Shown here piece after piece: positions 13,436 through 27,658 of a stretch of 64,000 nucleotides of DNA (the stretch's first letter is position 1; each line of letters starts with the position of its first letter). The stretch covers positions 1,526 through 65,525 of the forward strand of contig JAUWYL010000002.1 in the NCBI GenBank assembly GCA_030615855.1, written 5' to 3'. The stretch comes from a bacterium. GTDB taxonomy: Bacteria; UBP18; UBA7526. The notes under the pieces are model-generated. The model saw only the letters and a list, made by a program, of their open reading frames with translations, made no database searches and was not told the origin of the DNA. The translations under genes were made by a program, and so were the position numbers.

Positions 13436-13879
13436 GAGCCTCTCCCTGACTAGCTGATTAACTACCTTACCATCTGCTCTTCCCTTAGTCTTTCCCATGA
13501 CAGCGCCCATTACCTTCCCCATATCCTTCACGTCTTTCGCGCCTATTTCCTCAATCGTCTCCTCTATTATTCTTCCTAGTTCCTCTGGAGAAAACTCTTT
13601 GGGCAGATATTCTTTGATAATCTCGAGTTCTTTGGTTTCTTTCTCCACCAGGTCTTCTCGCTTACCTTTCTTATATTCCTCAATTGACTCTTTTCTCTTC
13701 TTGGCTTCAGTGCTTAAGGCACCAATGAGATCAGACTCTTTCAGTTCCTTATTCTTCCCCTTAGCGATTTCTAGGTTTTTAATTGCTGCTAAGAGAAGGC
13801 GGATGGTGGAGAGCCTCAAGGTATCCTTCTCCCTCAGGGCCTTTCTCATATCCTCATTCAACTTTTCCTTTAGATTCAT
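13388..13879 (-). CDS. yqeY: GatB/YqeY domain protein
   Basis: [39 protein letters not shown]; last ~15 aa derive from repeat DNA. Confidence 0.92.
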
Positions 13880-14133
13880 CTTCTCCCTCTCCCCCTCTCT
13901 CTTCCTTTTCCTCCTCCTCTTCCTCTTTCTATTCTGCCTCTCCTTGCTCGGGCGAGTCTCTTCCTGCGGCGCTTTTCGGCCTCAATCTTCTTTCTCCTTC
14001 TCTTCTCAGAGGGCTTCTCATAATGCCTTCTCTTCTTTGCTTCTGAAAGGATGCCCGATCTCTGAAGTGCTCTCTTGAATCTTCTCAGGGCCTCTTCGAT
14101 AGACTCATGTTCTCTTACTTCTATCTTTGCCAT
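13876..14133 (-). CDS. rpsU: 30S ribosomal protein bS21 with Arg/Gly-rich tail
   Basis: [21 protein letters not shown]; typical HIT-rpsU-yqeY order. Confidence 0.93.
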
Positions 14134-25584: not shown

Positions 25585-25650
25585 GTAACCGTTAGTAACC
25601 GTTTAGTAACCCTGCCTGCCGGCAGGCAGGCTTAGTAACCTCTAGTAACC
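25585..25650. repeat. TAGTAACC array 5' of the four-helix-bundle gene
   Basis: GTAACC x5 (four as TAGTAACC), the exact inverse of the downstream array, with perfect palindrome CCTGCCTGCCGGCAGGCAGG (25611-25630). Confidence 0.8.
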
Positions 25651-26213
25651 TATCTTAGGGGTATTTCCATTTCTTCCCAGCTTGCCTCCCTGGGCAGTAG
25701 TTTCCAGACGTTAGAGAGATTTATTCCTAACAGATAACATTTTATTACCGTATTTATTACCTTATGTCCCACGACGATTACCCTCCCTTTGGGATATTTC
25801 TTGGTAATTTCTCTTAAAACGTGAAGTGCTCTTTCGTAAAGGTCCAGGATGCTCTCCCCTCCAGGGGGCCTGACGCTTAAGGGTTCCTCTTCCCATCTTC
25901 GGTAAAGATTCTTATACTTCCTTCTGGCCTCTTTTACCAGAAGCCCTTGCCACTTTCCCTGGTTAAGCTCATTGAGATTAATATCCTTCTTTACTTTCAA
26001 TCTGTGCGCTCGGGCAATGATTCTCGCTGTCTCGTATGAACGGGAGAGTTCACTGGAGTAGATGGCGTCTATCTTCTTTCTTTTCAATTCTTTTGCTATT
26101 CTTTTTGCCTGTCTTAGCCCCTGCTCATTCAATTTTATATCCAGCCAGCCTTGAATCTTATTTATTGGAGTCCAGGCCGTCTGGCCATGGCGTACCAGAA
26201 TAACTTTAGTCAT
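25650..26213 (-). CDS. Histidine phosphatase (PGM superfamily), candidate glucosyl-3-phosphoglycerate phosphatase
   Basis: LVRHGQT, SSELSRSYETA, LNELNQGKWQG, PGGES, VVGH; adjacent to gpgS. Confidence 0.85.
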   Translation of the reverse strand: MTKVILVRHGQTAWTPINKIQGWLDIKLNEQGLRQAKRIAKELKRKKIDAIYSSELSRSYETARIIARAHRLKVKKDINLNELNQGKWQGLLVKEARRKYKNLYRRWEEEPLSVRPPGGESILDLYERALHVLREITKKYPKGRVIVVGHKVINTVIKCYLLGINLSNVWKLLPREASWEEMEIPLR

Positions 26214-26403
26214 CTTATTTTCCTTTCCCTCTTATTACGTCCTACCTAAAGATTAGCCTACAAAGTAACAAGGTTCCTCCGATGGAATCGGAGGGCTACC
26301 TTATTCTACCAACAAATTCAACAAAAATCAAAAGAGGTTTCTGAAAAAAGTTTCAGAGCCCTCTTGGAGATTTCTGACTTTTTCAGAAATCTCCAAAAAA
26401 GGC

Positions 26404-26433
26404 TTGACAAATGGAGATTTAGTGTGCTATTAT
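26404..26433 (+). promoter_or_regulatory. Sigma70-type promoter for the small basic protein gene
   Basis: TTGACA (26404-26409), 18 bp, extended -10 TG-C-TATTAT (26428-26433), then AGGAGAGGAGG RBS. Confidence 0.7.
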
Positions 26434-26463
26434 TAAACTAAATTTAAGGAGAGGAGGGAAAAA

Positions 26464-26574
26464 GTGGCGAAAAGAAAGAAGAGGGCGAAGAGGAAAAAGA
26501 AGGTTGTGAAAAGAAAGAAGGTTGTGAGGAGAAAGAAGAAAAAGGCAAGGAAGAGAAAGAAGAAAAAAAGATAA
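26464..26574 (+). CDS. 36-aa Lys/Arg-rich histone/protamine-like protein
   Basis: GTG start after a strong RBS: MAKRKKRAKRKKKVVKRKKVVRRKKKKARKRKKKR*; has its own promoter and a downstream hairpin; below the ORF-track cutoff. Confidence 0.75.
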   Translation: MAKRKKRAKRKKKVVKRKKVVRRKKKKARKRKKKKR

Positions 26575-26590
26575 TCAAGACTTAGATAGA

Positions 26591-26665
26591 GAAAGCCCCG
26601 CACTTTTTTAATATTCATTTCTTTAGGTTGCTACTTTGAATAGATAAAAGGTGCGGGGTTCTTTT
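26591..26665. terminator. Hairpin between convergent genes; arms match the GIY-YIG element ends
   Basis: CCCCGCACTTTTT (26596-26608) ... AAAAGGTGCGGGG (26646-26658), A-rich on the left and T-rich on the right; could act as a bidirectional terminator. Confidence 0.6.
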
Positions 26666-26668
26666 TTA

Positions 26669-27658
26669 TTAGGATCTCTTTTGCTTCTTCCTTTTCTCCC
26701 GATAGGCTTTCACAGTAATCATAGGGGGGCGCTCCACGATCTTTTTCTCAAAGGTCTCAAAAGAATACCTTTTCCCCTTCCTTTTAATAAGCCTCATGCT
26801 GGGATTTAATTCTTCTAACATCTTTAGTTTCCACAGATCCCCAGCACGGTTCAGAGCCACCTGCAGGATGGAGAAGGCCATCTTAGACAGGGTAGGGAGG
26901 GTATGATTCCTGTGGATGCGCTGATCCAGATCTACCTGGGCAATGGAGTTTAAGCCAAACTTCTTATAGATGTCAATTAATAGTCCCGTCTCTACTCCGT
27001 AACCGATGAAGAAGGGAACTTTTTCTAATATTTCTCTCCTCCCGGCATACTCCCCGCTCAAGGGTTGGATGAATCCCGAGAGATCAGGAAAGAAAAGATT
27101 AAAGACAGGACGAAGCATGAGCGCTGTTACTCTCCCTCCTCCAGAAGGCCTTAGTGTCTTCTCTGTCTCTAACTTTATTGGCCTCTCATAGAAAGCCTTT
27201 ACATAGCCTATCCTGCTATTGGTTAGAAGTGGACCGAGTAATCCATAGACGAACTTGGGATGGATGTTCTTGATATCGGCATCGAGCCACAAGATGATAT
27301 CTCCTTTTAGGAGATAGAGGCTCTTCCAAAGATTCTCTCCTTTGCCAGAATAGATTCCTTCCTCTTTTAAATAATCGTCTGTCAAATAGACATCTGCTCC
27401 ATACTTTGCTGCAATCTCTCTGGTCTTATCCGTTGAGCCAGAATCCACGATGGCTAATTCATCTATTAAGTGGTGCTTATCCATGAGTTCACTCTTGATC
27501 ACGATGAGCTCGGTGGCAATGGTCTCTGCCTCATTCAGGGTGGGAAGGCCTACGCTTATGGTTAGGTTCTTCTTCTTCTTTAACCTCACCAGTTCCTTAA
27601 TATCCGAGAACTGGGAGTGATGGAAGGTTCTATTTTTAAACCATTTTTCTACTTTCAT
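26669..27658 (-). CDS. gpgS: Glucosyl-3-phosphoglycerate synthase
   Basis: LPTLNEAETI, DSGSTD, GKGENLWKSL, DADI, GGGRVT, QPLSGEYAGRR, YGVETGLLID motifs of GT81 GpgS. Confidence 0.88.
   Translation of the reverse strand: MKVEKWFKNRTFHHSQFSDIKELVRLKKKKNLTISVGLPTLNEAETIATELIVIKSELMDKHHLIDELAIVDSGSTDKTREIAAKYGADVYLTDDYLKEEGIYSGKGENLWKSLYLLKGDIILWLDADIKNIHPKFVYGLLGPLLTNSRIGYVKAFYERPIKLETEKTLRPSGGGRVTALMLRPVFNLFFPDLSGFIQPLSGEYAGRREILEKVPFFIGYGVETGLLIDIYKKFGLNSIAQVDLDQRIHRNHTLPTLSKMAFSILQVALNRAGDLWKLKMLEELNPSMRLIKRKGKRYSFETFEKKIVERPPMITVKAYREKRKKQKRS

Follow-up and report, generated by a model that had tools for sequence, protein, structure and literature searches.

Does a purine-rich ORF of only 36 codons, the predicted product of which contains nothing but lysine, arginine, alanine and valine after the initial methionine, represent a genuine gene and, if so, what could such a polycation do in the cell that encodes it? 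This question is raised by a locus in a 64-kb stretch of DNA (hereafter, the window) from an uncultivated marine-sediment bacterium represented by a metagenome-assembled genome (45 contigs, 93.6% complete, 1.375 Mb; hereafter G000). The ORF, also present in close relatives, occupies positions 26464–26574 of the plus strand, where it runs from a GTG start codon to a TAA stop and encodes a product that reads M-AKRKKRAKRKKKVVKRKKVVRRKKKKARKRKKKKR. We recounted its composition (M plus A3, V4, K19 and R9), which agreed with the description given in an earlier note on this DNA: 28 of the 36 residues are basic and both aspartate and glutamate are absent. A hand calculation from this composition gave a net charge of about +28 and a mass of about 4.6 kDa.

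Genomic context and expression signals

The ORF and the elements around it are arranged as follows (window coordinates):

25650–26213, minus strand: histidine-phosphatase gene (His_Phos_1, E = 8e-55), divergent from the small ORF
26330–26400, no strand assigned: two short palindromes and then an A-tract, a multi-copy module just upstream of the −35 box
26404–26433, plus strand: sigma-70-type promoter (TTGACA, 18 nt, TATTAT, with a TG extension; 11/12)
26447–26458, plus strand: Shine-Dalgarno sequence AGGAGAGGAGGG, with the GGAGG core 6 nt from the start codon
26464–26574, plus strand: coding sequence of the polycationic micro-protein (36 aa, GTG/TAA; AlphaFold2 helix over residues 2–35)
26578–26677, no strand assigned: bidirectional intrinsic terminator hairpin, with an A-tract before and a T-tract after it, common to the ORF and the convergent gpgS
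26669–27658, minus strand: gpgS, encoding glucosyl-3-phosphoglycerate synthase, convergent with the ORF (NF010496, 371 bits against a cut-off of 262)

The gpgS stop codon ends at 26669. On the gpgS side we found a GT2/mannosylglycerate-synthase-like gene, a phosphomannomutase gene and a ManC gene and, on the other side, beyond the histidine phosphatase (a candidate phosphatase for the glucosylglycerate pathway), a GT4 gene and LepA. This neighbourhood is a compatible-solute cluster. The small ORF had been presented as the only supported plus-strand gene of the region, which is true as far as ORF overlap, Pfam matches and tRNAs could tell. As much as 89% of the window is occupied by minus-strand ORFs with a length of 100 aa or more, and most of the 15 plus-strand ORFs of that size overlap them to a large extent (ten at 99–100%, four at 66–81% and one at 30%). 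None of the four least-overlapped ones had a Pfam match, and both tRNAs of the window are encoded on the minus strand.

The signals expected of an expressed gene, which the earlier note had described as a near-consensus promoter, a strong ribosome-binding site and a downstream hairpin, were all recovered. A consensus scan placed the −35 box (TTGACA) at 26404–26409, the −10 box (TATTAT) at 26428–26433 and the TG extension at 26425–26426, an 11/12 match that only 67 sites in the whole genome, this one included, attain or exceed. Many of these sites share an A-tract + TTGACA + AA context and, judging by eye from the sequence, several seem to precede tRNA 5′ ends. The TTGACA box is retained in three relatives (G001, G002 and G005) and on two metagenome contigs (L073 and L076), and a purine-rich GGAGG or GGGGG box precedes the start codon in all orthologs. 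The terminator hairpin has a folding energy of −38 kcal/mol (z = −6.1; none of 200 shuffled sequences was as stable). With its A-tract on one side and its T-tract on the other, it can serve as terminator for both the micro-protein gene and gpgS. Relatives have other hairpin sequences in the same position after the ORF. The gene is monocistronic and, judging from these signals, probably strongly expressed. Three RNA runs from the same study gave no contig over 24500–28500, a result that speaks neither for nor against expression.

Repeated elements occur on both sides of the gene. A repeat search with the locus as query yielded matches to query positions 383–447, which correspond to the terminator core (26596–26660, with a loop of about 40 nt), a multi-copy repeat also found on three other contigs of the same genome (C18, C30 and C39) and in relatives. 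Query positions 117–196, the upstream palindrome module, had many matches in all six genomes of the phylum (G000–G005). This module is, then, a lineage repeat and not a gene-specific element, and it is absent from the orthologous locus of G002. Its palindromes, GAGGtCTCTGAA..TTCAGAGcCCTC and GAGATTTCTGA..TCAGAAATCTC, are followed by an A-tract and TTGACA, and they occur in the family before unrelated genes; thus, the same module precedes the TTGACA box of other genes in G001 (contig C32, locus L031, 160–330) and G004 (contig C4, locus L032, 130–215). One possibility is that the module is a mobile cassette found near promoters, another that it is a pair of operators. Between G000 and G002, the spacer from the phosphatase to the promoter (26190–26429) has only 10–57% identity while promoter, ORF and terminator are 89–100% identical, indicating that the spacer was swapped by repeat insertion.

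Conservation and mode of evolution

As a check of its proposal, the earlier note had suggested looking for a conserved ORF at the gpgS locus in relatives. Our comparison set comprised the five other genomes of the phylum (G001–G005), and in four of them an ORF of this type was found between the same two genes, as was also the case on metagenome contigs. A profile search of the six genomes recovered only the sequences of G000 and G002, missing known orthologs, so that orthologs were located by synteny and DNA patterns. Complete orthologs start with GTG in G002 (36 aa), G001 (39 aa) and metagenome contig L076 (32 aa) and with ATG in G005 (33 aa) and metagenome contig L073 (37 aa). In G004 the gene, with an ATG start, is split over two contig ends on which both halves are visible, and contig L033 carries a 3′ fragment that does not cover the start. 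Together with G000, this makes six complete orthologs (32, 33, 36, 36, 37 and 39 aa), all of which keep a GTG or ATG start, a Shine-Dalgarno sequence and a TAA stop. Lysine and arginine account for 73–82% of the residues of the orthologs, the remainder being alanine and valine plus one proline or glycine in two orthologs, and acidic residues are absent from every one of them.

The gene has a narrow distribution. In the remaining relative, G003 (82% complete), neither gpgS, nor the orthologous phosphatase, nor the N-terminal pattern of the ORF was found, and its longest run of ARR codons is not a polybasic ORF. No polybasic ORF was present at any of 35 more distant gpgS loci (48–70% identity). 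On two further metagenome contigs the locus is altered: in L069 an ATA replaces the start codon and the upstream sequence is unrelated, and in L071 the terminator repeat is joined to another gene and there is no ORF. With joins that fall in low-complexity or multi-copy sequence, these two contigs may be assembly chimeras or real variants.

Several features of the alignment identify the ORF as coding. All its length differences are in frame, and a 1-nt indel occurs only directly after the stop codon. Frame +1 contains stops and frame +2 lacks a start codon. Among the 168 all-purine codons of the six orthologs, G is found at codon positions 1, 2 and 3 in 1, 39 and 102 cases, respectively. G is thus nearly barred from position 1, which keeps glutamate and glycine codons out; a degenerating (AAG)n tract would treat positions 1 and 2 alike, so that this bias supports coding in frame 0. 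The ORF also tops the basicity ranking of the 19,092 ORFs of 15–120 aa in the 1.375-Mb genome, where it is single-copy; the runner-up among ORFs of at least 30 aa (8,305 in the genome) reaches a K+R fraction of only 0.52. This rank, together with the expression signals, indicates that the ORF is not a product of chance. The micro-protein ORF is a genuine gene, as the earlier note had maintained, and a conserved one, on the evidence of the conserved locus, the in-frame indels and the codon-position signal.

Its mode of evolution is unusual when set against that of the adjacent gpgS. In comparisons of G000 with each relative, the 4-fold degenerate sites of gpgS are 69–74% identical (Jukes-Cantor distance of 0.33–0.40) and the GpgS protein is 92–96% identical, and the small ORF of the orthologs is 64–92% identical to that of G000. 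As a control for codon conservation we used the K, R, A and V codons of gpgS at same-residue columns. Identical codons in the ORF numbered 20 of 26 between G000 and G001 (gpgS control 55 of 73; residues changed in 9 of 35 columns) and 16 of 20 between G000 and G005 (control 56 of 80; residues changed in 12 of 32 columns), so that in both pairs, in which gpgS is 93–94% identical, the retention of same-residue codons about matches the control. Between G000 and G002, 31 of 32 codons were identical (control 65 of 83; residues changed in 3 of 35 columns), the synonymous sites of the ORF being here more conserved than those of the control. The residue changes of the ORF are nearly all exchanges between lysine and arginine and far commoner than the changes in gpgS; K↔R exchange appears about as free as synonymous change.

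Length drifts as well, from 32 to 39 aa through in-frame indels, even inside one genus, an effect that AAG-type triplet slippage alone could favour. In contrast, bL34, a ribosomal protein of comparable shortness and basicity, has a constant 45 aa in four relatives when counted from MVKRTYQP, with no internal indels. Only M1, A2, V20, V21, K24–27 and A28 are invariant in the six complete orthologs. This pattern shows that selection keeps the charge, the exclusion of acidic residues and a small core, and little else; what it acts on is charge, rather than a precise sequence or a fixed length. Nevertheless, the invariant MA, VV and KKKKA hint at a specific partner as opposed to purely non-specific binding. 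The clade is shallow (4-fold distance of 0.33–0.40), so that conservation is probed here over a limited time.

Database searches and known small basic proteins

Searches for recognizable relatives of the micro-protein yielded none. Four orthologs were compared with Pfam (E up to 10) and none of them matched any family; there was likewise no match in NCBIfam (E up to 1) or among PDB chain sequences (E up to 10). A four-ortholog profile had no match at E up to 0.001 among 1.84 billion representative proteins, a search without power, as this low-complexity profile of 36 positions missed even itself. The Atlas returned just clusters of ‘hypothetical proteins’, with a recognition value of 1051 that falls short of the tool's mark of 2300, and was uninformative. 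None of the six exact ortholog sequences is present in a collection of 15 billion proteins, which indicates that no pipeline has called this gene and bears out the expectation that gene callers would miss it. At the RNA level, Rfam 15 gave six matches at E up to 1, all of them far under the gathering scores. A keyword search of the literature, which was not exhaustive, did not retrieve any stand-alone bacterial peptide described as having such a composition. In function, the likeness is to known small polycationic nucleic-acid binders; in sequence, the micro-protein falls outside all these groups, with a composition more extreme than theirs.

The use of a degenerate 39-nt DNA pattern for the core (KK-VV-...-KKKK-A-) gave four matches in genome_contigs (185,579 species), three being the records of the relatives and one a chance match within a 244-aa ORF. 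The same pattern also matched two short ORFs (41 and 25 aa) with ..KKKKKVVKKKKKKAKKKK.. K-rich tails in the viral contigs L085 and L086; these tails are probably convergent low-complexity sequence.

The micro-protein shares with protamines, histone H1 tails and the chlamydial proteins Hc1 and Hc2 a low-complexity basic composition and, presumably, the charge-based binding of these proteins. Protamine-type polycations, too, are selected for their composition and not for a precise sequence. However, the micro-protein is rich in lysine instead of arginine, has just 32–39 aa and belongs to a host that also has HU/IHF. The likeness to chlamydial histone-like proteins drawn in the earlier note stands as an analogy, but the micro-protein is far shorter and far more basic than these proteins, and by sequence it does not belong to their family: no Pfam match to Hc1/Hc2 or protamine P1 was obtained at E up to 10, in a database (Pfam-A) that includes the Hc1, HC2 and protamine P1 models. 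Another short, basic protein, the ribosome-bound bTHX (PF17070) of Thermus and chloroplast ribosomes, is known from few lineages; unlike it, the micro-protein has no match to PF17070 or to any other Pfam family.

In Escherichia coli, the tyrT transcript encodes tpr, described as a ‘small protamine-like protein’ (PMC3141248). Like the micro-protein, tpr is a tiny, basic peptide of a bacterium and has no known role; its gene is located by highly transcribed RNA genes. It is, however, part of a tRNA operon transcript, whereas the micro-protein gene has its own promoter, Shine-Dalgarno sequence and terminator.

Also among the closest known proteins are those of the bS22/eL41/mS38 type (PF08213, COX24_C/DUF1713). 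As portrayed in two reports, they are helical, basic proteins of 24–33 aa, often unannotated and sometimes with non-ATG starts, which act as non-essential charge-rich fillers of an rRNA pocket (PMC10618245; 10.1101/2023.03.31.535098). The first report gives about 30 aa (93 nt) and 61% K+R for the unannotated bS22 of Borrelia. It calls the rRNA pocket that holds this protein structurally conserved, presents the protein as an analogue of eL41 and mS38 and notes only one changed residue when three species groups are compared (PMC10618245). For mycobacteria, the second report gives 33 aa and a pI of 12.75 for bS22 and 24 aa for bL37, both conserved and non-essential (10.1101/2023.03.31.535098). 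The micro-protein resembles a bS22-type protein (about 25–35 aa, very high pI, a single bent helix seated in the 30S between h2, h27, h44 and h45) in its size of 32–39 aa and its predicted helix over residues 2–35. It has, however, neither the strong conservation of sequence and length among related species nor a sequence match to COX24_C/DUF1713. It is also more extreme, with 73–82% K+R and essentially alanine and valine otherwise, against the 61% of Borrelia bS22, and it drifts between closely related genomes, in contrast to bS22, which hardly varies inside a genus.

Possible roles of the product

Using the alignment of the six sequences, AlphaFold2 predicted a single helix (residues 2–35, pLDDT 94, pTM 0.48), a high pLDDT that for a lone K/A-rich helix from six sequences is weak structural evidence. 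By hand calculation, the alanine and valine residues of this helix do not all lie on one face. Selection on charge and the predicted helix together lead to the reading that we tentatively favour, namely that this monocistronic gene encodes a polycation of 32–39 aa that forms a helix on a polyanion and binds the backbone of RNA and/or DNA non-specifically. The peptide alone would be unstructured. Once its charges were neutralised on a polyanion, it would adopt one continuous α-helix of about 50 Å and bind the phosphate backbone of RNA and/or DNA without specificity. It would thereby condense the nucleic acid or shield its charges as a small counter-ion, comparable to a polyamine made of protein or to protamines and H1 tails. 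We infer here that the ORF is translated in vivo and highly expressed and that its product binds nucleic acids, as well as the nature of its target, and a nucleoid-condensing or RNA-binding role, as put forward in the earlier note, is plausible in view of the composition and the mode of evolution. The genome contains three HU/IHF-family genes, so that a nucleoid-protein role would fill no obvious gap; for the same reason, we rejected a replacement of HU.

The micro-protein might instead be a ‘genetically encoded polyamine’ in a strict sense, selected for net positive charge only and serving as bulk counter-ion and chaperone of RNA and DNA in this phylum of reduced genomes, a proposal that we consider improbable. 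Among the five genomes searched in this respect (G000–G004), AdoMet decarboxylase (PF02675) was found in none, and the Spermine_synth domain was found in four, only inside ORFs of about 770–900 aa. This is suggestive at most of an incomplete polyamine synthesis in the lineage. Reverse gyrase, which would have provided a link to thermophily, gave no match over the cut-off.

The main and serious competitor of the backbone-binding polycation, which the earlier note had not considered, is a lineage-specific ribosomal micro-protein like bS22/eL41/mS38, bL37 or bTHX, with its basic helix in an rRNA pocket, for example that of h27/h44/h45 near the decoding centre. Size, helicity, charge and missed annotation all fit this explanation, as do a promoter that is one of the 67 strongest-consensus sites, the partly invariant VV and KKKKA core, and the failure to find the canonical bS22 (PF08213) or Thx (PF17070) in the genomes searched. 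For PF08213 this failure means no hit over the cut-off in five genomes, with the weak control that only 1 of 14 control genomes exceeded it, and for PF17070 no match in G000 at E up to 1. We nonetheless regard a ribosomal role as rather unlikely: the peptide matches neither PF08213 and PF17070 nor any other family or PDB chain at E up to 10, and it varies between 32 and 39 aa with 26–38% of its residues changed among kin whose gpgS is 93–96% identical. Borrelia bS22, by contrast, differs in only one residue when three species groups are compared, and bL34 in the same genomes as the micro-protein shows no internal indels. A decidedly more doubtful explanation is that of a young, near-neutral ORF, in which a purine-rich (AAG)n-like tract happens to lie behind a strong promoter and a Shine-Dalgarno sequence and the protein, whether translated or not, has no selected function. 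It would agree with the confinement of the gene to one family-level clade and its absence at the 35 distant gpgS loci, with a core pattern that in genome_contigs matches the records of the relatives and a single chance sequence only, with K↔R changes that look neutral, and with the mobile repeats that flank the region. Against it, G occupies codon position 1 in 1 of the 168 codons and position 2 in 39, and start, Shine-Dalgarno sequence, stop and promoter have been retained at a neutral distance of 0.33–0.40 while the spacer was replaced.

Two further explanations dispense with the peptide. The transcript, 87–93% purine, could be a functional RNA, either a purine-rich small RNA or a product of convergent transcription modulating gpgS or other targets, with the ORF incidental. 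The convergent arrangement with gpgS and the shared terminator are compatible with this, and the excess of identical codons between G000 and G002 (31 of 32, against 65 of 83) could reflect it; the other ortholog pairs, however, show synonymous change at the level of the control, no Rfam family reaches its gathering score, the strong terminator speaks against read-through into gpgS, and the codon-phase signal and exclusion of acidic codons indicate selection at the protein level, all of which makes a functional RNA very improbable. Even more remote is the possibility of a small hydrophobic peptide rich in F, L and S encoded on the minus strand, in the style of type I toxin-antitoxin systems, the plus-strand transcript being its antisense RNA. 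All three antisense frames are open, as in any polypyrimidine run, and there is an ATG-initiated ORF of 61 aa at 26433–26618, but across the six orthologs the antisense ORFs vary in frame, start and length, none has a Shine-Dalgarno sequence, and they start inside a terminator loop that some orthologs lack.

Other candidate roles were rejected outright. A leader peptide or attenuator would have no co-oriented target, as the ORF is followed by the terminator and the 3′ end of gpgS and there is no supported plus-strand gene in the 64 kb. A RiPP precursor was discarded because the nearby glycosyltransferases are accounted for by GpgS-type solute synthesis, and a counter-ion of the anionic glucosylglycerate solutes was discarded by inference from stoichiometry. 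The micro-protein is not a replacement of bL34 either, as this protein is present over the cut-off in four of the five relatives, three of which (G001, G002 and G004) carry the polybasic gene too. The fourth, G003, has bL34, and no polybasic gene was found in it. bL34 (PF00468) was not found in G000 itself (93.6% complete), which is probably due to an assembly gap.

The gene is solid, its distribution is narrow and the role outlined above, drawn from sequence, is a proposal. If the micro-protein is made, few stand-alone genes of bacteria would encode a polycation as extreme as this one. Its gene escapes gene callers and homology searches, and trypsin-based proteomics would destroy its product, so that it stands for a class unseen by current annotation and proteomics. 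Either outcome would be useful, be it a lineage-specific ribosomal micro-protein in the bS22/eL41 pocket or a charge-only counter-ion in a minimal genome, and the gene offers a clean natural case of selection on composition rather than on sequence. A ‘genetically encoded polyamine’, if confirmed, would represent a class of bacterial nucleic-acid ligands so far undescribed.

The window also encodes another small basic protein, the ribosomal protein bS21 (PF01165, E = 5e-22; positions 13876–14133, minus strand), which has 85 aa and a long C-terminal tail rich in arginine, glycine and lysine. Its gene is one of only three tracts in the genome with at least 88% purine per 100 nt.
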